Of a DNA stretch of 64,000 nt, positions 7,359-64,000 are shown piece by piece. The stretch is from Escherichia coli (lineage in GTDB: Bacteria; Pseudomonadota; Gammaproteobacteria; Enterobacterales; Enterobacteriaceae): the NCBI RefSeq assembly GCF_044324785.1, contig NZ_CP172127.1. One strand, written 5' to 3'. A program made the translations under genes and the position numbers. Positions within the stretch are counted from its first letter, which is position 1, and the number at the start of each line of letters is the position of its first letter. The notes beneath the pieces were generated by a model. It was given only the letters and a program-made list of their open reading frames with translations, was not told the DNA's origin and did no database searches.

Positions 7359-9147
7359 AGACTGTCTCATAATCTTTGTCGAACAGGTTGGCTATTTTAC
7401 CACGAACTGTCAGGTGAGAGGTGACCGGATACGCAACCGCAAGATCCCACAAGCTCACACCGCCCATTTTAACGGTTTGATAAGGATAAGATGAGTAATC
7501 CTTATCATAGCGAGTGCCTAAATACTGATAAGTAATACCCCAGTCGAAGTCATACAACTGCCAGTCGAGCTGGTATTTCACCTGCTGTTTAGCACGGCGT
7601 AACAACGGCGTGTCGGTAATTGCATTGCGCGCATCGACATAATCATAACTCACAGTATGCGTCAGTGGTCCGGTATCAAAATTGGCGGTCGCCTCGACGC
7701 CCTTAATCCGCGCTTTCCCTTCGTTGTAATATTTCAGGGTGTGATCATCATAATCGATCAAGTCACTGACATCGTTACGATATCCGGAAATACGCCAGTT
7801 CACCCCAGCGGTTAAACCTTCAAACGCGCCTTCCCACTGTTTGCTTTTCTCAGGGTCCAGATTCGGATTTCCGTAGAAACCATACAGTTGTCCAAGATTT
7901 GGTGCCTTATAAGATGTCCCGTAGGAAGCAATGAAGCGATAACCTTCGATTAATTCCCAACCGATGCTGGTTTGCCAGGTTCCATGACGACCAAACTGTG
8001 AGTTATCGTCGCTGCGTGCTGCGCCTTCAAAGGTAAAATCGCCGACTTGTTGCAGCCCGGTCAGATAGATGCCGGTATTACGTTGATCATATCCATCCTC
8101 AACATAACCTGTACCCGGCGTCGTAGTCTGTTTCTGCCAGTCGACACCCGCACCAATACTACCGTGACCAACGATGACATTGTTTGCCCACTGGACGGTG
8201 TACTGCTTCATCTCATCCAGCGTCGCGGACGAATCATAACGACCATAATGGGGATCGTAGTTGTAATCTTTGCTATGGCTATAGCTGGTAATGAGTTGTG
8301 ATTTAATCAGTTCGCCGTTATAGCGCAGCCCGGCGTCCCAACTTTGGCTATAGAGTTTACGGGTATCGAGCAACGGTGAGCCGGGAGAATAATACGCGTC
8401 ATAATTGGTACGGTTATCATAGCCATAGCCGCGCACAAAGCCGCTCCAGGCATCAGTAAAGTTATGCTCCAGCGCGCCATAAAGCGTTTTACTTAAAAAA
8501 CCATCGTTATCTGTCTGCGCTTGCGTTCCGGTATTACCATAGGCAACAACATCATAACCATGAGTATGGGCATAATCGCCCAACAACGTTACTCGTGTCT
8601 TATCCCCCAGTTGTTGCTGCGTAGAGACATCATAGTTCTGATAACTATTGCTTCCCCACCCTGCTGAAATTTCCGTTCCGGGTTCATCGCGCGTCGTGAT
8701 GATATTCACCACCCCGCCTATTGCATCGGAACCATAAACGGCGGAGCGCGGCCCACGGATATATTCAACACGCTGGACAAGCGCAATAGGGAACTGGCTA
8801 AGGTCGGCAGAACCACTCACCCCCGCCAGATTCAGGCGTACGCCATCAATTAACACCAACACATGACTGGCATTTGTACCGCGAATAAAAATAGATGATA
8901 GCTGACCTGAACCGCCGTTTTGGGTGATATCCACGCCCGGAAGACGGCGCAGCACATCATTGACCGAGGTCGACTGCCAGCGGTCGATATCCTGACGCGT
9001 CACAATGGTGGTTGGTGCAAGCACAGTGCTGCGCGGCTGTTCAAAACGGTTAGCAGTAACGACGAGAGTATCCGGGCTGGTATCCTGTGCCCAAGCAGAA
9101 AAGGCTGTGACAGAACACGCCGTCAGCAGCGAAGCTTTTTTAATCAT
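7303..9147 (-). CDS. btuB: TonB-dependent vitamin B12/cobalamin outer membrane transporter BtuB
   Basis: Translation [37 protein letters not shown]... ending ...SGSYTF (TonB-dependent receptor C-terminal Phe); 3' end overlaps murI start by 56 bp. Confidence 0.95.
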
Positions 9148-51732: not shown

Positions 51733-52006
51733 TTATAATTGAATTAATCCACGGATGCGATAGTTGAGATCTTACATATTGTTGGTTAAAGAGATGTAGA
51801 TCAAATTGATCGTAATTAAGACTTTTTGATTATGTCCGATTTAGGACAAATGCTTTATAAAAAAGGGTTTTAGATTTGTATCCTTCAAGTAATGAGGGAG
51901 AAAACAAGGCTGATAACCTTATTTTCCCGCCCTCATTTCGAGGCAGCATTTTGTGCTCTGTTTAAAATTTGTGATCACTGTGTGATTTTCACAAAAGGCA
52001 CAATAC

Positions 52007-52900
<894 letters not shown>

Positions 52901-52949
52901 TTACCTCATCAATCGCTTGTCGTTATATGTTGTGTTGTGCACATCTATC

Positions 52950-52980
52950 CGTTTAGACGTCCAGATGTAAAGATGAAGGA
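52950..52980. promoter_or_regulatory. MetJ operator (tandem met boxes) upstream of metF
   Basis: tagacgtc cagatgta aagatgaa: tandem 8-bp repeats resembling the met box AGACGTCT, about 55 bp upstream of the metF start. Confidence 0.65.
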
Positions 52981-53279
52981 AAAGCTAAAGGGCGTCAACC
53001 GAAAAATGACCAATGATAGTGAGGAAAAATCAGGGAAGATGAAAAAAACTCATCTTAATTAGAGGCGATAAGAGATTTCTCTATAGCGCAATCCATCTCG
53101 CACGTTTTGACTAATATTCTGACAACACAGCGACACCTGGGCTAATTCGAAAAACAACCTCCTGCCACCGGATGGTGATGCTAAGGCATCTGATTCGGCC
53201 TGCGCTCTCACGTAGGCCGAATAATGGATCTGCAAAATCAACTGGTAGCAAACAGATGAATCAACTTAATACATACTTT

Positions 53280-54833
53280 TTACTTGATATCCTTCACACG
53301 CATACCGTTGATCTGTTCATCCGTGATGGTATTGCCCGCTTTGAAGTAATCAACCACGGCGTGATAAACGTAATAACCGCCCGTTGTGTTACGCGCTCTC
53401 CCTTCGGTGAAGGCGCTAAAACCATCGCCACCATCAGCAAGGAAACTCTGAGTAGCAATGTGGTAAACCGTCGCATCTTCAATGGGTTTGCCATTCAGAG
53501 TCAGCGAGATAACCCGCTGACCAACCGGCTTACTGCTGTCGTACTTCATTTCCAGGCCTTTCGATACCTGTAAAACGCCATTACTTAAACTTGCGCCGTG
53601 TTCCATCAAACTGCGTAATTGTTTACCCGTGAGATCCATCGTCACCAGTTCGTTGGGGAACGGGAAGGTACTGATGACGCCGCCCATCGTAATCGCCCCT
53701 GCGGGGATCTCATTGCGAATACCGCCAGAGTTGGTTAAAGCCAATTGAGTGTTTTTACCCGCCGCTACCAGTAAAGCGTCCGCCGCCAGGTTCCCCAGGG
53801 ATGCCGATTCACCATAGGCACGTTTTAATTCAACCGGCGATTTCGCGACCGTTTGTTGCACCACTTCATCAAGCTTTTTATTCCAGCCGTCGATCACCTG
53901 TTTCGTTTGCGGATCGGGCTTCCACTCGTCGGCGTAAATGGTTTTAAGCTCGAAGTTTTTCACCGTAAAATCATGCGGCTTCTCTTTGTAGTCGAGAACC
54001 AGTTTGCCCACATCAATCCCGCCACTGTCAGTGGAAAGGATGAGCGTATTGCCGACTTTAATCGGTTCCGGCGTACCCACATGTGCATGTCCGGTGATCA
54101 AAATATCCAGCCCTTTCACCTGACTTGCCGTCTGAATATCTTTATCCAGTGCGCGACGCACATCAGTCCCTCCCATACTGGACTGGCGGGCCGGAACACC
54201 TTCGTGGATCAGGGCGACGGTCAAATCAACCTTGCCTTTGAGTTCATCGATATAACGTTGTAGCCATTTAATTTCATCACGCGCTTCAATACCCACTCGC
54301 GTGGCAGCAGATACTGTGTCATTAAAGGCAAATACACCGTGCAAACCTATAACGCCTATTTTCACACCGTCTTTTTCGATGATGGTATAGGGCTTATCCC
54401 AGAATGATTTACTGCTGTTCTGATAAAAAACATTGCCCTGCACAATCGGGAATTTTGCCTGACTCAACTGTAATAATGTGTTGTCCCAGCCGTGGTCAAA
54501 TTCATGGTTACCCATCGTGACAGCATCGAATGGCATGGTATTCATAATATCGATAATAGCCTTGCCTTTGGTCAGGCTGCTGATATATGGCCCGGTAAAA
54601 TAGTCGCCCGCATCAAAAAACCATGTCGCCTTATTTTTTGCTTTTTCTTGCTTAACCAGCGTAGTGATATTTGCCCAGCCGCCAATATCCCGTTTACCGT
54701 CCGCAATCCACGGCACTTTATAAGGCTCTACATGTGCATGGAGGTCGTTGGTATAAATAATGGTGACATCTTTAGCGCAAGCCCAGAATGGCAGTGTTAA
54801 TGCGATACCCGCAGCAAGTATTTTAATTTTCAT
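53280..54833 (-). CDS. secreted bifunctional metallophosphatase / 5'-nucleotidase family protein (UshA/CpdB-like)
   Basis: 517 aa; signal peptide [20 protein letters not shown]; calcineurin-like phosphoesterase motifs (TNDLHAH, GDYFTG, MGNHEFD, GHAH) plus a C-terminal 5'-nucleotidase substrate-binding domain. Confidence 0.85.
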
Positions 54834-54892
54834 AAACAGTCCCTTTCAGTGAGATAAAGGATTGCTACATTACGTTCTGAAAGAGTTATTTA

Positions 54893-54908
54893 TGTGAGAG
54901 TAATCACA
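54893..54908. promoter_or_regulatory. perfect consensus CRP (cAMP receptor protein) binding site in divergent promoter region
   Basis: TGTGAgagtaaTCACA: both consensus half-sites with 6-bp spacer, roughly 60 bp from each of the two divergent start codons. Confidence 0.7.
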
Positions 54909-54965
54909 TCCACAGGGGAGCGTTGCCGGACAAAATCAACGACCATGTGAAATCGTTGGTGATAT

Positions 54966-56096
54966 ATGTCGACTCTGTTTACGATTAATGCCTGCAAGTC
55001 GTTTGGTTGCCGTAATTTAGGGCAGCCAACATCGACAGATTATAGCTGGCCCGACTATCGACTGGGTTATCCGGCACTGCACTGTCGGGCATGTGGCAGT
55101 TACCCGCCGTTGTTTGACGAGCAACAATTTCGTGACTGGTTGACAGTTCACTTATCTACTTTTGCAACAGAGAAAGGCCATTTTTGCCCGGTATGTTATG
55201 GTACAGATACGATTTGTTATGGTCACAATCCACAGGGTTCGCAACGCATTCAATGCCGTAACTGCAAAAAAGTATGGACACCCAAACAATATCAGAAAGA
55301 AATAACGACTCCCGAAATAATCGAAACGGTTGCTTTTCTCGTGCCATTTCAGGGAGTCAGCAGCGGGCAGAAACTGTATGTTTTAATCAGTTTTGATGCT
55401 CTTCGCGGTAATATTCTTCATCTTTCTACTAATTACACGCAGCATCAGGCTGGAGAAAGTCTGCATTATCGATACAGAGGGAATGCAGAACCAGAGTTAC
55501 ACGAGAGTAATATTGTACAACGCGTTGATATGCGGGAAGCACAATTTCTACGCCGCAGTCAGTTTGATGAAATTCAGTATGGCAGCGCAGCGCTCAAACG
55601 CAATGCTAAAGGTGTTATTCTGCGTCCGGTTATCACTGCACACGGGCATTTCAGAGTACTGAATATTTTATTCCCTACAGTAAAAACACATGTAATTTCA
55701 CACGAGTGTTTTTTAAGAGGTGCCATTATTACGGCATGGGCTGATCTGTTTCGCCAACAGCAAGGTGAGATTTGGTTTATTGAAGAGGAAATAGCTGACG
55801 ATACCGATAATATGCCCTGGAGTTTTCAGGGAACAACTTATCACGGCTGGTGGAAAAATCAGTGGCAACTTTGGGGTCAGGGCAAAAATCGTAAAATGGT
55901 ATGTGCATTAACGGGCGGAAAGAGTAGCAAAGCAGAAATGCTCTCTTTAGCAACCAGCAGACATTTTATCGACTGGCTACATAAACAAGCAGTATTTACT
56001 CACAGCACCCCGCTTTCCGCAGGGCGCGTTACGCAAATACTGCTTTCTCTGGCTCAGGATTACAACAACTGCGCCAGGCGGTTAATATCCGACTGA
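54966..56096 (+). CDS. hypothetical Cys-rich protein (N-terminal paired C-x4-C / C-x2-C zinc-ribbon-like motifs)
   Basis: 376 aa ORF; N-terminus contains C..x4..C, C..x2..C, C..x2..C, C..x2..C pairs (ACKSFGC, CRAC, CPVC, CRNC); no signal peptide; 3' end overlaps convergent metL stop by 37 bp; function not recognisable. Confidence 0.6.
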   Translation: MSTLFTINACKSFGCRNLGQPTSTDYSWPDYRLGYPALHCRACGSYPPLFDEQQFRDWLTVHLSTFATEKGHFCPVCYGTDTICYGHNPQGSQRIQCRNCKKVWTPKQYQKEITTPEIIETVAFLVPFQGVSSGQKLYVLISFDALRGNILHLSTNYTQHQAGESLHYRYRGNAEPELHESNIVQRVDMREAQFLRRSQFDEIQYGSAALKRNAKGVILRPVITAHGHFRVLNILFPTVKTHVISHECFLRGAIITAWADLFRQQQGEIWFIEEEIADDTDNMPWSFQGTTYHGWWKNQWQLWGQGKNRKMVCALTGGKSSKAEMLSLATSRHFIDWLHKQAVFTHSTPLSAGRVTQILLSLAQDYNNCARRLISD

Positions 56097-58492
56097 ATCG
56101 CCCCTGCGGTGACGTCGCGCCCCGCGCCAGGCCCACGGATCACCAGAGGGTTATCGCGATACCAGCGGCTTTCGATGGCAAAGACGTTATCGCACGGCAG
56201 CAGTGATGCCAGCGGATGGTCTTCACGCACCGCTTCCACGCCCACACGCGCTTTGCCATTGGCATCGAAACGCGCCACGTAGCGCAGCACCAGCCCCATT
56301 TCGCGGGCCGCTTCCAGCCGTTGCAACATCTGCTCGTTGAGTTCATCGCCGTTTTCAAAGAAATGGTCGATGCTACCGCCTTCGCAATGGGCAGGCACCA
56401 GCGATTCCACGCGCACCTGATCTGGTTCGATGTCGTAACCCGCTTCACGCGCCAGAATCACCAGCTTGCGCATCACGTCTTTGCCGGAAAGGTCATCACG
56501 CGGGTCAGGCTCGGTTAAGCCCTGCTGCCACGCCTGATCCACCAGTTCGGTAAACGGCACGCTACCGTCGAATTGCAGGAACAGCCAGGAGAGCGTGCCG
56601 GAGAAGATCCCGCTGATCGACAAAATAGTATCGCCGCTGTCGATCAGATCGCGCACGGTATGGTTGATCGGCAATCCCGCACCGACGGTGGCGTTGTACA
56701 GCCAGTGACGCCCGGTTTTTTCGAAGGCGTCGTGGATCTGGCGATATTTATTGCTGTCGCTCGCTCCTGCCAGTTTGTTGGCACTGATGACGTGGAAACC
56801 GTGGCTGGCGAAATCAAGATACTGGTCAGCGAGCTGCTGGCTGGCGGTAACGTCCAGCACCACTAAATCATCATACGGATGGGCGCGCATCCACAGGAAC
56901 AGCGACTCTTCATCCTGCTCGACCGCTTCATCGTTGAAGAAGGCTAGCGCGCGGCTGGCATCCAGCCCGCCATAACTCAACAGGCTGCGGCGGCTGTCCA
57001 CCACGCCTGCCAGCACAAATTCAAAGCCGGTACGTGCCGAAAGCGTGCTCTGCTCACGGGCGAACAGTTCCAGCCAGCGGGAACCGATATTGCCCTTGCC
57101 GAACAATACCAGGCCGATGCGTTTTTCTGCGCGGAAGACGGACTGATGCAGCCCCTGAATCAGGCTTTCGGTTGGTCCGGTGCGCAGTACTGCCACCAGG
57201 CTGATGCCGTCATCGGACTGCCAGGTAAATTCGACCGGCTGGCCTTTCAGTTGCTGCCAGAAGCGGTGGCAATGCAGCGGGTTACGGGTGACGCCTGCAC
57301 CGACCATCGCCACCAGCGCCAGCCCCTGACGCAGGCGCAGTTCGCCAGGTAATCCCGCTTCGTCGAGGATTTTCAGCGCACTGTCAGCGACTTCTGAGGT
57401 GTAGCAAAATTGCAGCAACTGGCGATCGTTATGCACGCCAACCGCCAGTGGACGCACCTGGGCACGTTTCAGGATCTGGTCGATCTCTTTATGTGCCAGT
57501 TTGAAATCCTGACTGGCGGGCACCTGAAACTCAATCAAACAGACATCATCGTGGCTGGTGACAATACGCGCACCAGTACCAGAGGCCAGCACGCGTTCAA
57601 TGCGCGTGGAGCCTTGATCCGGCGTGTAGCTACAGCGCAGTTGCAGGTCGATTTCGCTACCGGATACCGGCTGTAAAGTACGGGCGTGAAGAACGGGAGC
57701 CGCCAGACGCGCCAGTTCGCTGGCCTCATCCAGACGCAGCAACGGCAGCAGGCAGGCATCTTTCACTTTACGCGGGTCGGCACTGTATACCCCGGCGACG
57801 TCGCTCCAGATGGTTACACGAGAAACACCCGCCAGCGCACCGATTTGTGTCGCGGAATAGTCGGAACCGTTACGCCCCAGCAGCACCGTTTCACCGGCGT
57901 TGTTACGGCTGATAAACCCGGTCACCACCAGACGTTTGCCCGGATGTTGTACCAGTAGCTGTTGCAGCAACGGGTAAGAAAGTCCTTCATCAACCTGCGG
58001 TTGCGCAGCGCGTTCAGCGCGTAAAAACTCGCGGGCATCAAGCCAGGCCGCTGGCAGCCCTTGTTGATTAAGTACCGCAGACATCAGGCGTGCCGACCAT
58101 ACTTCCCCGTGGCCCACCACTTCCGCATACACCGCATCGTTAATACCACTGTCGAGCAACGCCGCCAGGCGCTCAAGATCGCTGACAAAAGCGCTAATGA
58201 GGCTATCGGCTTCTTCGGCGGGTAACAGGCCGCTAATCAGATCGCACTGATAGCGACGCAGCGTTTGTTGAACCTGATGCGCAGAGAGACGATCGGTCTG
58301 GCTTAGTTTCAACCAGTTAATCAACTGGTTAGTGGTGCTACCGGCGGCGGAAACCACCATCATATCGTCAGGCAGAGAGTACTCCGCCATAATGCCCGCG
58401 ACACGCAAATAACACTTCACATCAGCCAGACTACTGCCACCAAATTTATGCAGTTGACGACCTTTCGCCCCTGCCTGCGCAATCACACTCAT
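56060..58492 (-). CDS. metL: bifunctional aspartokinase II / homoserine dehydrogenase II MetL
   Basis: 810 aa; MSVIAQAGAKGRQLHKFGGSSLADVKCYLRVAGIMAEYS... Confidence 0.95.
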   Translation of the reverse strand: MSVIAQAGAKGRQLHKFGGSSLADVKCYLRVAGIMAEYSLPDDMMVVSAAGSTTNQLINWLKLSQTDRLSAHQVQQTLRRYQCDLISGLLPAEEADSLISAFVSDLERLAALLDSGINDAVYAEVVGHGEVWSARLMSAVLNQQGLPAAWLDAREFLRAERAAQPQVDEGLSYPLLQQLLVQHPGKRLVVTGFISRNNAGETVLLGRNGSDYSATQIGALAGVSRVTIWSDVAGVYSADPRKVKDACLLPLLRLDEASELARLAAPVLHARTLQPVSGSEIDLQLRCSYTPDQGSTRIERVLASGTGARIVTSHDDVCLIEFQVPASQDFKLAHKEIDQILKRAQVRPLAVGVHNDRQLLQFCYTSEVADSALKILDEAGLPGELRLRQGLALVAMVGAGVTRNPLHCHRFWQQLKGQPVEFTWQSDDGISLVAVLRTGPTESLIQGLHQSVFRAEKRIGLVLFGKGNIGSRWLELFAREQSTLSARTGFEFVLAGVVDSRRSLLSYGGLDASRALAFFNDEAVEQDEESLFLWMRAHPYDDLVVLDVTASQQLADQYLDFASHGFHVISANKLAGASDSNKYRQIHDAFEKTGRHWLYNATVGAGLPINHTVRDLIDSGDTILSISGIFSGTLSWLFLQFDGSVPFTELVDQAWQQGLTEPDPRDDLSGKDVMRKLVILAREAGYDIEPDQVRVESLVPAHCEGGSIDHFFENGDELNEQMLQRLEAAREMGLVLRYVARFDANGKARVGVEAVREDHPLASLLPCDNVFAIESRWYRDNPLVIRGPGAGRDVTAGAIQSDINRLAQLL

Positions 58493-58494
58493 TT

Positions 58495-59655
58495 TTACCC
58501 CTTGTTTGCAGCCCGGAAGCCATTTTCCAGGTCGGCAATTAAATCTTCGCCATCTTCAATACCGGTGGAGATACGCAGCAGCGTCTCGGAGATCCCGGCG
58601 GCAGCACGCGCTTCTGGTGCCATGCCTGCATGTGTCATGGTTGCGGCGTGAGAGATTAAACTTTCCACTCCCCCTAATGATTCCGCCAGCGTAAACAACG
58701 ACAGCCCGCCCAAGAAACGACGCAGCGTCTGCTCATCGCCATCCAGTTCAAAACTCAACATTGCGCCAAAGCCTTTTTGCTGGCGCGCGGCAATTTCATG
58801 CCCCTGATTTTCCGGCAGCGACGGGTGATACAGTTTTTTCACCAACGGCTGGGTTTGCAGATATTTCACAATCGCCTGCGCGTTGCGCTGGGCCAGCTCC
58901 ATACGCGGCACCAGAGTTCGCAACCCGCGTAGCAGCAGATAGCTGTCAAACGCGCCGCCCGTCACGCCAATATTGTTTGCCCACCAGGCAAGTTCAGTGA
59001 CAACGTCCGGATCTTTAGCAATCACCACGCCGGCCACCACGTCTGAGTGACCGTTCAGATATTTCGTGCATGAATGCAACACCAGATCGGCACCTAATGC
59101 CAGCGGATTTTGTAATGCCGGGCTTAAGAAGGTGTTATCCACCACGCTCACCGCCCCGACTTCCCTTGCCAGATGGCAGATTTTCGCAATATCCACGACG
59201 CGTAACAATGGATTACTTGGGCTTTCTACCAGTACCAGTTTGGGGTTTTCTGCCAGCGCTGCCCGTAATGCCTGTTCATCGCCTTGATCAACAAACAACA
59301 CGCGATAGCAACCGCGTTTCGCCAGGCTGTCGAACAGGCGATAGCTGCCTCCGTAGCAGTCGTGCGGCGCAACCAGCAGATCGCCTGGTTTCAAAAAGAC
59401 GGTCGTTACCAGGTGAATCGCGGACATGCCGGTATTAGTAAGTACGGCACCAGCACCGCCTTCCAGTTCTGCCAGCGCACGCTGAACCACATCGCGCGTT
59501 GGGTTGCCGCGCCGCGAGTAATCATGCGCGCGCGGTTCATTAAATCCGGTAAAGTTATAGGTGCTGGAAAGATGGATGGGAGGGACAACGCAACCATACT
59601 GTTCGTCGTCATTTAACCCGCTACGCACTGCGATGGTGGCCTGTTTACGCGTCAT
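58495..59655 (-). CDS. metB: cystathionine gamma-synthase MetB
   Basis: Translation from MTRKQATIAVRSGLNDDEQYGCVVPPIHLSSTYNF...; PLP-dependent; the ORF-track 445-aa version is an upstream in-frame extension without stop. Confidence 0.94.
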   Translation of the reverse strand: MTRKQATIAVRSGLNDDEQYGCVVPPIHLSSTYNFTGFNEPRAHDYSRRGNPTRDVVQRALAELEGGAGAVLTNTGMSAIHLVTTVFLKPGDLLVAPHDCYGGSYRLFDSLAKRGCYRVLFVDQGDEQALRAALAENPKLVLVESPSNPLLRVVDIAKICHLAREVGAVSVVDNTFLSPALQNPLALGADLVLHSCTKYLNGHSDVVAGVVIAKDPDVVTELAWWANNIGVTGGAFDSYLLLRGLRTLVPRMELAQRNAQAIVKYLQTQPLVKKLYHPSLPENQGHEIAARQQKGFGAMLSFELDGDEQTLRRFLGGLSLFTLAESLGGVESLISHAATMTHAGMAPEARAAAGISETLLRISTGIEDGEDLIADLENGFRAANKG

Positions 59656-59714
59656 GTGATGAAGTTCCCTGGGCTTTGTCGGTGAAATGTCAGGCACCAG
59701 AGTAAACATTGTGT

Positions 59715-59750
59715 TAATGGACGTCAATACATCTGGACATCTAAACTTCT
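59715..59750. promoter_or_regulatory. MetJ operator (tandem met boxes) in metB / metJ divergent control region
   Basis: Reverse complement reads tagatgtc cagatgta ttgacgtc, three tandem 8-bp met-box-like repeats upstream of metB. Confidence 0.65.
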
Positions 59751-59931
59751 TTGCGTATAGATTGAGCAAATCCCAAATAGCCGTTAAAATTATATGCATT
59801 ATCACGCCGACAGGTGCATTACACGATGTCACGGTAGCGCCTGTACGGTAAACTATGCGGGTTTACGGTCAGTACCCACATAAATTGTGTGGTCTGGTCT
59901 CAATTTATTGACGAAGAGGATTAAGTATCTC

Positions 59932-60249
59932 ATGGCTGAATGGAGCGGCGAATATATCAGCCCATACGCTGAGCACGGCAAGAAGAGTGAACAAGTCAAA
60001 AAGATTACGGTTTCCATTCCTCTTAAGGTGTTAAAAATCCTCACCGATGAACGCACGCGTCGTCAGGTGAACAACCTGCGTCACGCTACCAACAGCGAGC
60101 TGCTGTGCGAAGCGTTTCTGCATGCCTTTACCGGGCAACCTTTGCCGGATGATGCCGATCTGCGTAAAGAGCGCAGCGACGAAATCCCGGAAGCGGCAAA
60201 AGAGATCATGCGTGAGATGGGGATTAACCCGGAGACGTGGGAATACTAA
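59932..60249 (+). CDS. metJ: methionine repressor MetJ
   Basis: Translation [66 protein letters not shown]...; 105 aa. Confidence 0.95.
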
Positions 60250-60257
60250 AGCGGAAA

Positions 60258-60290
60258 AGAGCGGCGCGGAGTTAACCAGCCGCTTTTTTC
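60258..60290 (+). terminator. rho-independent terminator downstream of metJ
   Basis: Hairpin agcggcgcggagttaaccagccgct followed by tttttc. Confidence 0.55.
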
Positions 60291-60308
60291 ATACATGGAC
60301 GTTTAACG

Positions 60309-60917
60309 ATGAAAATCAGGCTACTGATCCTCAGCCTGCTGGTTTCTGTGCCTGCATTTGCCTGGCAACCACAAACCGGCGACATCATCTTTCAGATCTC
60401 TCGCTCATCGCAAAGTAAAGCGATCCAACTGGCGACCCATTCCGATTACAGCCACACCGGTATGCTGGTGATACGCAACAAAAAGCCCTACGTTTTTGAA
60501 GCGGTCGGCCCGGTGAAATACACCCCGCTCAAGCAGTGGATTGCCCATGGTGAAAAGGGCAAATACGTTGTTCGCCGCGTTGAAGGCGGACTGAGTGTTA
60601 AACAACAGCAAAAACTGGCGCAAACGGCAAAACGTTATCTCGGCAAACCGTATGATTTCAGCTTCTCATGGAGCGACGATCGCCAGTACTGTTCGGAAGT
60701 GGTGTGGAAGGTTTACCAGAATGCGCTGGGAATGCGCGTGGGCGAACAGCAAAAGTTGAAAGAGTTCGATCTGAGTAACCCGCTGGTTCAGGCAAAGCTC
60801 AAAGAACGTTACGGCAAGAATATTCCGCTTGAGGAAACGGTGGTCTCGCCACAAGCCGTTTTCGACGCGCCACAACTCACCACGGTTGCCAAAGAGTGGC
60901 CGCTGTTTTCGTGGTAA
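60309..60917 (+). CDS. yiiX: conserved secreted protein YiiX (permuted papain-like/DUF830 family)
   Basis: 202 aa with signal peptide MKIRLLILSLLVSVPAFA; conserved position next to metJ. Confidence 0.88.
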   Translation: MKIRLLILSLLVSVPAFAWQPQTGDIIFQISRSSQSKAIQLATHSDYSHTGMLVIRNKKPYVFEAVGPVKYTPLKQWIAHGEKGKYVVRRVEGGLSVKQQQKLAQTAKRYLGKPYDFSFSWSDDRQYCSEVVWKVYQNALGMRVGEQQKLKEFDLSNPLVQAKLKERYGKNIPLEETVVSPQAVFDAPQLTTVAKEWPLFSW

Positions 60918-61003
60918 TGGATGATAAAAAAATAATTCCCGCCGTAGTCTGTTTGTTGCTTTGTAGTTGCACGACCTTTCCGCAAGCTGTCGCTCCGGTA
61001 AAC

Positions 61004-61766
61004 GGTGATGCCTCCAATTAGTTGAATTAAGGATATAATACTCGCTTCTAAGGTTGTTTCATGGTCACAGTTAACCTTCATTGTCCCCGTTGCCAGTCCG
61101 TTTAGGTTTACCGTCACGGGCAGAACCCCAAAAGACATGATCGATTCCGCGGCCGTGACTGTCACCGGGTATTTCAGCTCAGTTACTGTTACGAGCCCCG
61201 TAAACCGGGAGTTAAAGACCAAATCGCTGAAATGGCTTTCAACGGTGCCGGGGTTCGCTATACTGCCCGTACGCTGAAAATCGGCATTAATACAGTCATC
61301 CGAACTTTAAAAAACTCTCGCCACGAAGAATAACGTCATCCCCGGTCGCTCATGCTGATGTGGCACTCAACTGCGAACTTAGTCAGCAATGGAGCTTTGT
61401 CGGCAGTAAAGCGCGACAGCACTGGCTCTGGTACGTGTACAACACGAAAACTGGTGGTGTTCTGGCCTACACTTTTGGCCCCCGGACTGATGAAACCTGT
61501 CGTGAATTGCTGGCGCTGCTTACCCTTTTACCATCGGCATGTTGACCACTGACGAATGGGGTAGTTACACCAGAGAGTTACCAAAGGAGAAGCATCTGAC
61601 TGGTAAGATTTTTACTCAGCACATTGAGCGTAACAATCTGACCCTGAGAACCCGAATCAAACGTCTGGCCCGCAGAACCATCTATTTCTCGCGTTCTGTA
61701 GAACTTCATGAAAAAGTCATCGGTGCTTTTATCGAAAATATATGTTCTACTGATTGGAGTCATCAC
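61004..61766 (+). mobile_element. degenerate IS1-family element (frameshifted insA and insB, no target duplication)
   Basis: IS1-like terminal repeats ggtgatgcctccaattagttgaatt (left) and ...ctactgattggagtcatcac (right); InsA-like reading MVTVNLHCPRCQSV*, then in another frame ...AEMAFNGAGVRYTARTLKIGINTVIRTLKNS; InsB-like segments ...QQWSFVGSKARQHWLWYVYNTKTGGVLAYTFGPRTDETC... and ...TDEWGSYTRELPKEKHLTGKIFTQHIERNNLTLRTRIKRLARRTIYFSRSVELHEKVIG in different frames. Confidence 0.8.
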
Positions 61767-61866
61767 TCTTCTGATGAGCTTTCCTTGGATGATTACCAGA
61801 CTGAATACACAGCCAAAGATTTTTACCTCATTCTGCTCTTTTTTCTCAAATGACATATATTATATT

Positions 61867-62145
61867 TTACATCATATTCATAGGCATATGACATTCCCCC
61901 GCCCCCATTATGTCATTGTGGGTTGATGTTGGGCTTTCATAAAAAAATACATCTTTTTTTGAACTAGCATTAATTATATTTACTTTATACATTAAAATAT
62001 TTTCTCCATCTGGAAATATTTTAGCCACACAATATAAAGCAGCTAAATCCGAATTACTTAAAAATATATTGTCATCACTCATAACTCCAGCCATTAAATG
62101 ACTGGAGACTAAAGCAAGGAAATAACAACATTGTATTGCCTTCAT
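61867..62145 (-). CDS. small secreted protein, candidate immunity protein for the adjacent Rhs C-terminal toxin
   Basis: ATG for MKAIQCCYFLALVSSHLMAG... preceded by a GGGAG RBS; hydrophobic N-terminus; AT-rich; starts 60 bp downstream of the Rhs fragment stop on the same strand. Confidence 0.6.
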   Translation of the reverse strand: MKAIQCCYFLALVSSHLMAGVMSDDNIFLSNSDLAALYCVAKIFPDGENILMYKVNIINASSKKDVFFYESPTSTHNDIMGAGECHMPMNMM

Positions 62146-62205
62146 TTTAATTACTCCCTTGCCTGATAATTGTAACTCCATTCCCTTTAGCTTTGGGATT
62201 ATATT

Positions 62206-63564
62206 TTAGATAGGTGTTATTTGGTGTTCCCAAGTAACTACTGTATTCTTTTTTTCCATTCCATTCATATAAGAATTCGTTAAATCTTTGCTTGAAAAAT
62301 TTAGACTATCATAAACATCATTTTCTTTTGTTACTTTATTTCCTTTATCGTCAGAGTAAAAACCGTGAGTGTGATAATCGCCTACTCTCTCTGAACCTTC
62401 AGGGCGTTTTATATTTCGCAAGTCTACACTATCATTATCATTTGAACTTATCGGATTCATGGGGGAATATTCACCTTGCTTCTTACATATTAGTCCACCA
62501 TATTCTTTATTCTCGTTAATTGATTCTCCATTACACATTGCCAATGCAAATATTCCAATATCATCTATATTTTTTGATTTAAATTCATATAATCCTAATG
62601 GATCCATGCCATTCACCGGGCTCAGCGGATATGTATACAGGTTCCATCCCCCCTTCAGCCCAATCGGATCCTGAGTGATATACCGCCCCTGCAGCGGGTC
62701 ATAATAGCGGTGGCGGTTGTAATACAGGCCGGACTCCTCATCATACTGCTGCCCCGGCAGGCGGATGAGCTGCTGCAGTTGATGCGGGTTCTCTTCATTC
62801 AGCAGATTGCCCCACTCATCGTATTCTGCGCACCATTCTGTTGCCCCTTCCGTGCTGACAAGCGCCAGCGGCAGGCCGCGATGGTCGCAGTGGTACAGGT
62901 GGATTTTTCGCGCCGGCGTGTACACCGGGTCCATCTGGTTTTGCATCTGCTCCACCGTCAGGCCGCACGATGCCAGCCAGCGGCGGCTTTCCTCACTCAC
63001 CCGGTCAGCCAGGATTTCACTTTCCAGCCGGTCGAGCATCTGCACCAGCACCGGCGGGAACACCACACTGCCACCGTCTTCACCGCCGGACTGCTGAAGC
63101 GCATCCGCCAGGCTGCGGCGCTGCGTTTTCGCCAGCTCACCGGTGGCGGTTTCGACCCTGATGAGTGGCGTGAAGCTCCCCGGCTGATAAACCGTCTGGA
63201 TGCGGGTTCTGTCGTTCTGTATCGTGGTCAGCCGGTCGCCGTCCCAGCCGTACCAGGTCACTTCCGGTTTCCGTGACAGCGACATCCAGCCCGTCAGGTC
63301 CCGTTCACGCCGCCACACCCGTTTTGCCACCCTGCGGCCCAGCGGGTCGTAAAGATAGCGACTTTCGACCAGCGGCTCTGCATATTGTGTCCGCGTGTAG
63401 TGCACCAGCCGGTGCTGACTGTCGTAATGGTACCGGTGAGTCCGCTCATCATCCGTGCGGATAACCCCTTCCGGGATGAGGTCGGTTTTCTCTGTCAGCC
63501 TGCCGTGACGGTCATACCGGTAAAGATAGTGCGCGTCACGGGCGATACGGTTATCCGGCCACAT
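62206..63564 (-). CDS. orphan Rhs-family C-terminal fragment: conserved Rhs core end (to DPLGL) fused to a 127-aa variable C-terminal toxin domain
   Basis: Translation ...[14 protein letters not shown]...[15 protein letters not shown]...[17 protein letters not shown]...[45 protein letters not shown] then the AT-rich divergent tail [14 protein letters not shown]...[12 protein letters not shown]...; Rhs-like reading frame extends upstream to about 63650 without an obvious start, and the long N-terminal Rhs body is absent. Confidence 0.82.
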
Positions 63565-63678
63565 GCTGAGGGTGCTGTCCGGGTGCAGCTCCGGGTCGGG
63601 CAGGCGGTTGCCTGCCGGGTCCGTGGCATACGGGATATCAATGCCCAGGTTACATATAATAAGAGCAATTAACTTAAT

Positions 63679-63936
63679 TTATTTGTTTATAATGCGCTTA
63701 CTTAATACAAACCATTGAATATACCCTCCTGACAGAAAATAAAGCCATGTTATTATCGCCATAATATACTTACTATCAATCCTTACGCCAATAATGTCTG
63801 AAACAGTCCCTATAAATATTAGAGCAATAAAGAATACTATGCCTGTTGGAAAACATATTACCATCATTCCATAAGACATGAGACTAATTAACTCGCTCAC
63901 ATCACGAGTGGAGTCTAATAGTGAAAGTCTATGCAT
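63679..63936 (-). CDS. small hydrophobic protein (two predicted TM helices), possible immunity protein of an upstream toxin module
   Basis: 85-aa ORF MHRLSLLDSTRDVSELISLMSYGMMVICFPTGIVFFIALIFIGTVSDIIGV...; AT-rich; directly upstream of the Rhs fragment on the same strand; close to window edge. Confidence 0.4.
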   Translation of the reverse strand: MHRLSLLDSTRDVSELISLMSYGMMVICFPTGIVFFIALIFIGTVSDIIGVRIDSKYIMAIITWLYFLSGGYIQWFVLSKRIINK

Positions 63937-64000
63937 GGAAAAGAATAGTATTAAAAGCGATAAAGCCAGCCATGTAGCTCTGAATAAAAAAATAATACAT

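Follow-up and report, generated by a model that had tools for sequence, protein, structure and literature searches.

Can a stretch of DNA that encodes only the end of an Rhs protein, with a small candidate immunity gene behind it, still work as a toxin and its antidote? The Escherichia coli DNA analyzed here (a stretch of 64,000 nucleotides, the whole of which we call the window) raises this question near its end, where a preliminary description, made from the letters of the sequence, had read an orphan Rhs C-terminal toxin module with its immunity gene. In other words, is this a cassette kept for use, or is it what is left of one? Our answer, to which we would give a probability of roughly 85%, is that it is a displaced, undeliverable, and decayed orphan tip of the Rhs element that lies between yiiX and rpmE, with toxin and immunity gene both frameshifted. 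The argument turns on the following features.

61061 to 61753, plus strand: degenerate IS1H-type transposase remnant, which forms the end of the Rhs element next to yiiX
61867 to 62145, minus strand: dsORF-f3, 93 aa as read, with an AAGGGAG Shine-Dalgarno sequence 8 nt upstream
61905 to 61911 (about 61907), minus strand: 1-bp deletion in dsORF-f3, G6 to G5, from alignments with other genomes
62147 to 62205, minus strand: leftover ancestral toxin frame, now out of frame, from a repair simulation and the annotation of homologous loci L001, L004, and L005
62206 to 62589, minus strand: toxin tail as read, 127 aa, a truncated DUF4329/Tox-JAB-2 domain
62256 to 62259 (about 62258), minus strand: 1-bp deletion in the toxin, GGG to GG, from alignments with other genomes
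62590 to 63636, minus strand: orphan Rhs core fragment, from blastn against K-12 rhsC and the full-length rhs of strain N3
63637 to 63678, minus strand: spacer that separates the ybfB stop from the first position of rhs core homology
63679 to 64000, minus strand: ybfB; the homologous position of L001 and L002 carries the annotation "protein YbfB"

An Orphan Rhs Tip

The sequence features given in the preliminary description are all present, and its reading of the boundary can be seen as claimed: the GC-rich end of an Rhs core, the DPLGL codons (62604 to 62590) that close it, and the switch to an AT-rich tail. G+C is 0.57–0.65 over 62600–63600 and 0.29–0.36 over 61800–62600, a drop from about 0.6 to about 0.3 at DPLGL, and this is the arrangement of an Rhs-associated core with its PxxxxDPxGL demarcation motif followed by an AT-rich tip. 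Judged by its profile matches, the Rhs identity of the fragment is far beyond chance: NCBIfam NF041261 (RHS_core) matches at E = 6.5e-230 over model positions 905–1261 of 1261, and TIGR03696 (84.7 bits; cut-off 32.5), YD_repeat_2x (24.6 bits; cut-off 15.8), and Pfam RHS PF03527 (1.8e-14) match as well.

Could the open frame, then, be no more than the 3′ end of a full-length rhs gene extending further upstream? The tail does end a full-length rhs in 34 of the 39 genomes of a spread sample. Here, however, the RHS_core score is 766 bits against a full-length cut-off of 2000 bits, and the 1047 bp of core homology amount to the last ~349–350 codons, residues ~899–1247 of a protein of ~1395 aa; the N-terminal PAAR-like delivery domain and complete YD shell of a full-length Rhs are missing, the homology starting only at ~899 of ~1395. 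It stops at 63636. The spacer beyond shares the fragment's frame, offers no ATG, GTG, or TTG, and runs into an in-frame stop codon, 63679–63681, which is the stop of ybfB and the upstream limit of the fragment's open frame. The ybfB frame is intact in the window, where its 108 codons are visible save for about the first 5 nt (fewer than two codons), the start lying just past the window's end; we take it to be the small membrane-type immunity gene of an RhsC-type toxin tip upstream. The sequence of 63637–64000 thus refutes a continuing rhs, an idea that we consider virtually impossible, and on this point the preliminary description, which had named the end of a full-length rhs as the finding that would overturn it, was right: upstream there is ybfB and no further rhs sequence.

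The minus-strand open reading frame of 62206–63564 (452 aa) begins at an ATG that has neither a Shine-Dalgarno sequence nor any other ribosome-binding site before it. It is just one of the internal Met codons that RhsC-type cores normally contain; "LSMWPDN" occurs in K-12 RhsC too, and strain TUM14771 has GCA where the window has ATG 63564. Because ybfB stands directly upstream, core homology begins only at residue ~899, and the first ATG has no ribosome-binding site, the region is a true orphan, that is, a displaced C-terminal tip of the yiiX–rpmE Rhs element together with its immunity gene, as the preliminary description had held. The core fragment lies 3′ of another tip's immunity gene, its homology is restricted to 63636–62590, upstream of DPxGL, and the same tail is fused to full-length rhs in O157:H7 Xuzhou21, ATCC 43896, and N3.

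How did this come to lie beside yiiX? In K-12 the whole yiiX–rpmE interval is 60 bp, and the element in the window is therefore an insertion relative to K-12. The preliminary description had the cassette inserted there; the insertion stands, but the inserted unit is the whole of a long-catalogued Rhs element and not the cassette alone. At the homologous loci L001 and L002 the gene order is rpmE, full-length rhs, (immunity), ybfB, partial rhs, dsORF-f3, IS1H, yiiX, and elsewhere, N3 included, it is rpmE, full-length rhs, dsORF-f3, IS1, yiiX. No other rhs-sized open reading frame lies within the window; the main full-length rhs is expected past 64000, a placement known from the homologous loci only. 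The IS1H-type remnant has internal stops in its translations and is annotated at the same position in L001–L005 as "IS1-like element IS1H family transposase, frameshifted"; a search of it for IS1 terminal inverted repeats found none.

The cassette itself is already known, its locus catalogued and its small gene named in public annotation ("RHS element protein dsORF-f3," the PGAP name in more than 2000 genomes). It occurs in 2164–2170 of 5426 complete E. coli genomes (~40%), mostly on full-length rhs. The orphan arrangement accounts for 5 of the 39 genomes in the spread sample, a ratio to be read as a sample estimate, since the ybfB/core junction is common to the K-12-type rhsC locus and precludes an exact count.

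A Predicted JAMM-Type Toxin

What kind of toxin would this tip have carried? The preliminary description could not assign the tail to a known toxin family, and here it can be improved on. By HMM search the tail is Pfam DUF4329 (PF14220), alias Tox-JAB-2: the window copy matches at E = 1.2e-12 over model positions 6–93 of 116 and the intact allele at E = 5.9e-16 over positions 6–108 of 116, and the tail has homologs in 386 clusters. Structure prediction (pLDDT 92–98) confidently gives the toxin a JAB/MPN fold, that of the JAMM/MPN metallohydrolases; the predicted fold and the pattern of the metal-binding motif are those of the JAMM/MPN+ metalloproteases (AfJAMM, Rpn11, CSN5, AMSH, BRCC36, and the bacterial Cap3 and BilC) and of RadC. 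The likeness to Tox-JAB-2/DUF4329 as described by Zhang et al. (2012) lies in the HMM match, in an E, H[ST]H, S, D motif that is kept in 96–100% of 137 homologs, and in the association of the domain with RHS repeats and with modules for type VI delivery; the difference is that the window copy has lost its C-terminal quarter. In a numbering that starts at the D of DPLGL, the window tail has E34, H78-T-H80, S104, and D107, so that the truncated toxin retains all four catalytic-motif residues.

What the domain does is another matter. Several annotation papers label the activity of DUF4329 "RNase," citing Ma et al. (2017); our literature search found no biochemical study of DUF4329 activity, and a 2024 preprint states its activity and substrate as unknown.

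Two Missing Bases

Read as it stands, the DNA has just what the preliminary description reported, a 127-aa tail, a 60-bp gap, and a 93-aa gene, with the ATG of dsORF-f3 (62145) 60 nt past the toxin stop and its frame ending at 61867. These dimensions are real as read, but they are frameshift products, brought about by two 1-bp deletions. The first costs the toxin its ancestral frame at about residue 117 and, with it, the YLGTP motif (93–97% conserved in 137 homologs) and three predicted β-strands; a complete DUF4329 domain, with YLGTP and the last three β-strands, is thus missing from the window copy, whereas the intact alleles of other genomes have the motif. The ancestral toxin stop, TAA at 62149–62147, would have stood 1 nt ahead of the ATG of dsORF-f3. 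The second deletion shifts the frame of dsORF-f3 at about codon 81, replacing the last 26 residues and removing the C-terminal quarter of a protein whose ancestral frame runs to 61823 and gives 107 aa ending in ...HLRKKSRMR. With one G restored per site, we obtain the consensus forms, a 147-aa tail and a 107-aa small protein, as found in nearly all other genomes. Both deletions sit in homopolymer runs.

As exact 65-mers, the deletion allele of the toxin is found in 9 of 2164 genomes and that of dsORF-f3 in 35 of 2169. Compared with four other genomes, the window lacks both bases, and so does strain N3, whose two genes PGAP flags as frameshifted. The claim of an intact toxin/immunity module, therefore, does not survive the comparison: one-base deletions have broken both genes, and both have probably lost their function.

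Might the module nonetheless be intact and functional, the deletions being homopolymer errors of sequencing or assembly? The two G runs (GGG to GG and G6 to G5) are typical sites of error in long-read assembly, and it is in keeping with such errors that a single inserted base per site restores perfect consensus proteins. The alleles, however, occur together in strains N3 and A39, and singly they recur among independently assembled genomes that form clonal groups (M8/RSHH22/SK6988; EH41/EH53; ST2747, with three assemblies; and GF8/GF75/GF161). The window, moreover, is 99.9% identical to N3 over the IS1 remnant and the cassette, and shared ancestry therefore accounts for the alleles that they have in common. 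We find it unlikely that both deletions are errors.

If the deletions are real, as we think, one can still imagine the shortened products at work. One proposal is that the cassette is kept as a stored immunity gene, the 93-aa variant still protecting its host against E. coli that carry the full-length toxin. With the toxin in ~40% of complete genomes, a cell would gain from such protection; orphan immunity genes of CDI systems are expressed and protective (Poole 2011); and dsORF-f3 retains its own Shine-Dalgarno sequence. What counts against the idea is the replacement of the last 26 residues, which include two C-terminal β-strands in a low-confidence model, and the loss with them of the terminal ...R that is common to partners of other DUF4329 toxins. 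The O157:H7 lineage, furthermore, has an intact toxin on full-length Rhs and tolerates a frameshift in the middle of dsORF-f3, which argues that selection on dsORF-f3 is weak. We think it quite improbable that the variant still protects.

A second proposal is that the orphan is expressed from an internal start and acts inside the producer, as a toxin–antitoxin-like or regulatory pair. Precedents are reported for an orphan Rhs of Salmonella (PMC7043789) and for RhsFint–RhsFI of EHEC (PMC7618764), and the window offers an in-frame ATG at 63564, the strong Shine-Dalgarno sequence of dsORF-f3, and a promoter-like site at 63779–63752. That ATG, however, is the internal Met codon, without a Shine-Dalgarno sequence, that TUM14771 lacks; promoter-like sites are not enriched relative to shuffled sequences (8 in the window, 6.1 ± 1.8 expected), and a scan for promoters and terminators found nothing above chance. 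Both frames, finally, are truncated, the toxin having neither YLGTP nor its three β-strands. Expression of this sort we hold to be very unlikely. The EHEC RhsF/RhsFI pair (PMC7618764) lies at a different locus, ECs0604, and was set aside.

The Small Protein and the Compartment Question

In which compartment, then, would the intact pair have met? The N terminus of dsORF-f3 (MKAIQCCYFLALVSSHLMA, followed by GV) resembles a Sec signal and has the tripartite form of one, MK, then AIQCCYFLALV, then SSHLMA before a G, its best 11-residue Kyte-Doolittle hydrophobicity being ~2.1; in a low-confidence model of one helix and four strands, residues 1–30 are not packed against the predicted fold. The preliminary description had taken this signal to suggest a toxin that acts in the periplasm, which seems to us no more than plausible. 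N-terminal signal peptides of the toxins were set aside as an indicator of compartment, with a hydrophobic segment in only 5 of 70 stand-alone DUF4329 homologs.

The partners of other DUF4329 toxins give a mixed answer. Of the partners of distant DUF4329 toxins, 11 were sampled: 3 have clear or probable export signals and 8 have none, and the partners of Salmonella Rhs-DUF4329 proteins have no signal by SignalP (PMC10469887). From 10 metagenomic loci we defined a partner-protein family with a helix, strands, and a C-terminal aromatic-x-Arg. Between dsORF-f3 and the distant partners BLASTP found nothing significant, hhalign gave P = 0.089, likewise not significant, and an HMM of the 10 partners scored dsORF-f3 at 4.6 bits, a suggestive score that 12 of 5000 shuffles reached. 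A homolog search with dsORF-f3 returned sequences from E. coli alone, none below 69% identity, and one with the partner from L011 returned only 3 matches; sequence similarity therefore does not allow a broad family to be defined. Searches of dsORF-f3 against Pfam (even at E ≤ 10) and NCBIfam gave no family match, and it did not match Imm-NTF2-2, the immunity family listed for Tox-JAB-2 with a conserved Y and W; dsORF-f3 contains no tryptophan, and the one helix and four strands of its low-confidence model speak neither for nor against an NTF2-like roll. In its missing match to Imm-NTF2-2, too, the cassette differs from the Tox-JAB-2 systems of Zhang et al. (2012).

Structure prediction takes the small protein little further. 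The model of dsORF-f3, built on a mixed alignment of putative partner proteins, has a mean pLDDT of 49.5, too low for a fold search, and in a predicted toxin–linker–immunity fusion the toxin part is confident, whereas the immunity part and the interface are below 50.

Discussion

We have argued that this locus holds a relic. The history that we propose starts from an intact cassette, a Tox-JAB-2/DUF4329 toxin of ~147 aa that would have been a JAMM-type zinc hydrolase with an E...HTH...S..D motif, fused after the DPLGL self-cleavage motif, with dsORF-f3 coupled to it in translation. As the tip of a full-length PAAR–Rhs protein, the toxin would have been enclosed in the Rhs shell and delivered by type VI secretion, and dsORF-f3 would have neutralized it in kin cells. 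We infer this delivery route and the catalytic mechanism, the route by analogy from the PAAR-like N terminus of RhsC-type proteins and the literature. A later-acquired tip, consisting of an RhsC-type end and ybfB, then pushed the cassette downstream, on this view, and the one-base deletions afterward broke both toxin and immunity gene. The orphan lacks both an N-terminal part for delivery and the signals that start translation, and it is therefore undeliverable; it is on this reading a decaying relic, at most a substrate for recombination whose product would still be frameshifted.

Each part of this picture has relatives. The Rhs element between yiiX and rpmE is the "RhsF" of the Hill laboratory. 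Jackson (2009) lists the locus as E. coli rhs locus 11 and gives the model of tip displacement; the window has the same site, IS1H remnant, core fragment, tail, and small gene, being 98–99.9% identical to more than 2000 complete genomes; what sets it apart is the rarer orphan arrangement behind ybfB and two rare frameshift alleles. At another chromosomal locus, K-12 has the series rhsC–ybfB–ybfO–ybfC, that is, main rhs, immunity, orphan tip, and orphan immunity, with the same ybfB/orphan-core junction; window positions 64000–62615 are 97.6% identical to ybfB and the core part of ybfO, but after DPxGL the K-12 orphan has an unrelated tail and ybfC where the window has the DUF4329 tail and dsORF-f3. 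In Salmonella Typhimurium, work by Koskiniemi and colleagues in 2014 is reported to have found an orphan rhs with an active toxin/immunity pair. Poole (2011) defined orphan rhs-CT/rhsI modules, and with these and the cdiA-CT/cdiI modules (Poole et al. 2011; Starsta et al. 2020) our cassette shares retained core upstream of DPxGL, missing translation start signals, an immunity gene of its own next door, and full-length fusions in other strains. The published orphans, however, were shown to encode active pairs, whereas the window copy is frameshifted in both genes.

One further reading concerns the family more than this copy of it, and we put it forward as doubtful. Perhaps there is a subset of Rhs-linked Tox-JAB-2 systems, this cassette among them, with exported immunity proteins, in which the JAMM toxin acts, or is intercepted, in the periplasm and is a metallopeptidase rather than an "RNase"; its substrate might be, for example, isopeptide-like bonds of the cell envelope. 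If that were true, the Rhs shell would make immunity in the cytoplasm of the producer dispensable, which would explain how O157:H7 can keep an intact toxin beside a frameshifted dsORF-f3.

As a feature of one genome, the locus adds little: the displacement of Rhs tips is well described, and this is a further, degraded instance of it. The raw open reading frames would have led one to call a working toxin/immunity pair, where comparison among genomes reveals two pseudogenes. Tox-JAB-2/DUF4329 is reported to be widespread among Salmonella serotypes (PMC10469887) and is present in ~40% of E. coli genomes, and some of its partners have clear export signals while others have none. In which compartment the toxin works, and on what substrate, is thus a question that would be cheap to test.

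Layout of the locus

What is left at the high-coordinate end of the window is an orphan Rhs toxin and immunity cassette, the architecture that the preliminary description had proposed, but it is a pair of pseudogenes, for each gene has suffered a 1-bp deletion. We regard that observation as a whole as confirmed and its interpretation as partly supported. An orphan cassette at rpmE-yiiX is, moreover, already known.

Features at the Rhs end of the window
64000→63679, minus strand: ybfB, frame intact, start just beyond the window end; small protein with hydrophobic segments
42 nt between 63679 and 63636, minus strand: spacer between ybfB and core fragment
63636→62590, minus strand: rhs core fragment, homologous to full-length rhs genes
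62589→62206, minus strand: AT-rich toxin tail
62145→61867, minus strand: small gene dsORF-f3
~61061-61753, plus strand: degenerate IS1H-type transposase remnant with internal stops
60309-60917, plus strand: yiiX

The assignment of the core fragment to Rhs is beyond doubt, with NCBIfam RHS_core matching at E=6.5e-230 (model positions 905-1261 of 1261) and TIGR03696 scoring 84.7 bits against a cut-off of 32.5. Compared with K-12 rhsC and strain N3, it covers about residues 899-1247 of an Rhs protein of ~1395 aa, and window positions 64000-62615 are 97.6% identical to K-12 ybfB-ybfO. Its orphan status stands, as core homology is confined to 63636-62590 and is adjoined upstream, after an in-frame stop, by an intact copy of ybfB, which serves RhsC-type tips as immunity gene. 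The fragment's first ATG (63564), which is an ordinary internal Met codon of RhsC-type cores and reads GCA in strain TUM14771, has no Shine-Dalgarno sequence, and the window holds no second rhs-sized ORF. Running off the window, ybfB (63679-64000) implies a further toxin tip just past 64000, probably with a full-length rhs there too. The spacer between ybfB and core also carries, relative to TUM14771, a 3-bp deletion at 63661-63663 of no obvious consequence.

The rpmE-yiiX gap, 60 bp in K-12, is filled in other E. coli by a whole Rhs element, and Jackson et al. (2009) listed the site as E. coli rhs locus 11, proposing a tip-displacement model that accounts for such arrays; orphan rhs-CT/rhsI modules were defined by Poole et al. 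(2011). Two arrangements recur: rpmE, full-length rhs, (immunity), ybfB, partial rhs, dsORF-f3, IS1H remnant and yiiX (loci L001 and L002), and rpmE, full-length rhs, dsORF-f3, IS1 remnant and yiiX (N3, O157:H7 Xuzhou21 and ATCC 43896). The IS1H remnant (61061-61753), at which terminal inverted repeats were not detectable, occupies one fixed position on the yiiX side of the element in all five homologous loci examined (L001-L005) and is listed under the match in each of the best 25 genomes. The tail and small gene occur in 2164-2170 of 5426 complete E. coli genomes, one copy each and always on the chromosome; in a spread sample the tail ends a full-length rhs in 34 of 39 and a partial gene in 5. 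The NCBI pipeline names the small gene's product "RHS element protein dsORF-f3." The "f3" in that name goes back to the Hill laboratory's RhsF element.

A toxin of the Tox-JAB-2 family

The core ends at DPLGL (codons at 62604-62590), and there G+C drops from 0.57-0.65 to 0.29-0.36, just as had been described. The claim that the tail could not be assigned to a family fails: in a profile search the intact allele matches Pfam DUF4329 at E=5.9e-16 (model positions 6-108 of 116). Zhang et al. (2012) named this family Tox-JAB-2, with the motif E, H[ST]H, S, D. An exhaustive search gave 386 clusters of homologs at E≤0.001. Delivery modules of several kinds bear such homologs: Rhs, VgrG, PAAR and other giant proteins. 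Across 137 trimmed homologs, numbered from the D of DPLGL, conservation reaches 93-100% at E34 (within N..EYGG), H78-T-H80, F-S104-x-x-D107 and Y124-L-G-T-P128. Given the family match and these residues, the toxin is in our reading a zinc-dependent hydrolase of the JAMM type. If it resembles the JAMM enzymes of known structure, E34 would act as general base, with the metal bound by H78, H80 and D107. The "RNase" label that annotation papers give DUF4329 comes partly from an analogy with RadC, and a 2024 preprint states activity and substrate as unknown.

How both genes decayed

Comparison with four other genomes shows two bases missing from the window: a G from a GGG run at ~62258 in the toxin and another from a G6 run at ~61907 in dsORF-f3. 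Through the first loss the toxin leaves its frame at about residue 117, YLGTP and the predicted β-strands 122-126, 132-135 and 144-148 give way to 15 unrelated residues and a stop, and the Pfam match is reduced to model positions 6-93. The second shifts dsORF-f3 at about codon 81, leaving 93 aa in place of 107, with the segment ...MSY(T/A)YEYDVKYNICHLRKKSRMR gone. Simulated return of one G per site recovers both consensus proteins and a TAA-A-ATG junction, the toxin stop lying 1 nt ahead of the immunity start. The 127-aa tail and the small ORF 60 nt past the toxin stop, with its hydrophobic N-terminus, had been read correctly in the window, but tail, gap and 93-aa gene are all products of frameshifts.

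Could the deletions be sequencing error? We give this a low probability. Searched as an exact 65-mer, the window's toxin allele is present in 9 of 2164 genomes and its immunity allele in 35 of 2169, repeatedly in clonal groups of assemblies; strains N3 and A39 have both, and PGAP flags both genes in N3 as "frameshifted." From IS1 remnant through tail the window is 99.9% identical to N3, against 96-97.6% in the metF-metL backbone, where no complete E. coli genome of the 5426 exceeds 97.6%. Clonal recurrence and this disparity lead us to read the deletions as inherited alleles, apparently carried by an exchanged segment; over 52000-64000, the Rhs end looks laterally exchanged, while the backbone shows the window to come from a poorly sampled Escherichia lineage.

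Between metF and metL lie a 5'-nucleotidase/metallophosphatase-like gene (53280-54833, minus strand) and a 376-aa ORF (54966-56096, plus strand) overlapping the metL 3' end by 37 nt. Some E. coli have the two genes (L001-L003), whereas neither is annotated in that interval in Xuzhou21 or ATCC 43896.

The immunity candidate and the periplasm

Where would the intact toxin be neutralised? The N-terminus of dsORF-f3 (MK / AIQCCYFLALV / SSHLMA|GV) has the form of a putative Sec signal. Pfam and NCBIfam searches gave the protein no match, nor does it match Imm-NTF2-2, which Zhang et al. give as the immunity family of Tox-JAB-2. Homologs turn up in E. coli only, and both structure predictions are of low confidence. 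We compared the genes directly downstream of 11 distant DUF4329 toxins. Three of these partners, all Rhs-linked, have predicted export signals: a lipoprotein signal (...TFAS|C) in L010, a Sec-type signal (...ITFA|TDKE) in L011 and its relatives, and an N-terminal hydrophobic segment in L007. The other eight, linked to PAAR, VgrG or other modules, have none, and PMC10469887 reports that SignalP scored no signal peptide in the partners of Salmonella PAAR-Rhs-DUF4329 proteins.

Most partners share a loose pattern of helix, strands and then a C-terminal aromatic-x-Arg, and dsORF-f3 can be aligned with them along its full length; neither BLASTP nor hhalign gives this similarity significance, and its score, reached by 12 of 5000 shuffles, is only suggestive.

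Partners examined for their C-termini, by locus
L007: 6664-7074
L009: 2320-2577
L011: 6189-6566
L012: 839-1324
L014: 3839-4348
L015: 10896-11375
L016: 3079-3660
L017: 3538-4062

Encoded next to unrelated DUF4329 toxins, nearly all of these end in aromatic-x-Arg (YYAR, HYSR, FYGR, TFAR, SYMR, YYLR, YFVR), and intact dsORF-f3 ends in SRMR. A conserved arginine at this end could perhaps plug the JAMM active site. With partner signals mixed and similarity not significant, the periplasmic action suggested earlier is possible, not established; we put at about one in four the chance that neutralisation of this E. coli toxin takes place in the periplasm.

A proposed history and its meaning

On a full-length Rhs, as the family literature suggests (Poole 2011; PMC8636562 and PMC8765631), a PAAR-Rhs shell would enclose the intact C-terminal toxin, cleave itself at DPxGL and be launched by a type VI system, and a JAMM-type toxin would then damage a recipient unless dsORF-f3 were there. 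In this window, gain of an RhsC-type tip with ybfB most likely displaced the cassette downstream. It has neither delivery domain nor start signals, and decay of both genes followed. Through its 1047 bp of core homology the cassette could still be joined to an upstream rhs by recombination, which would yield a frameshifted toxin.

Elsewhere a different lesion is found: a 65-mer that spans a 1-bp deletion in an A7 run mid-dsORF-f3 (L004, the Xuzhou21 locus, 8467-8789; ~61960 in the window) has an exact match in 307 of 2138 E. coli genomes. All those sampled belong to O157:H7 or to strains close to it, and the full-length rhs that bears the DUF4329 tail in Xuzhou21 is annotated as intact. If that state holds for the rest, a whole lineage would have kept the toxin with its immunity gene broken. 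The activity of Tox-JAB-2, and the compartment in which it acts, is the only thread here that we think worth pursuing.
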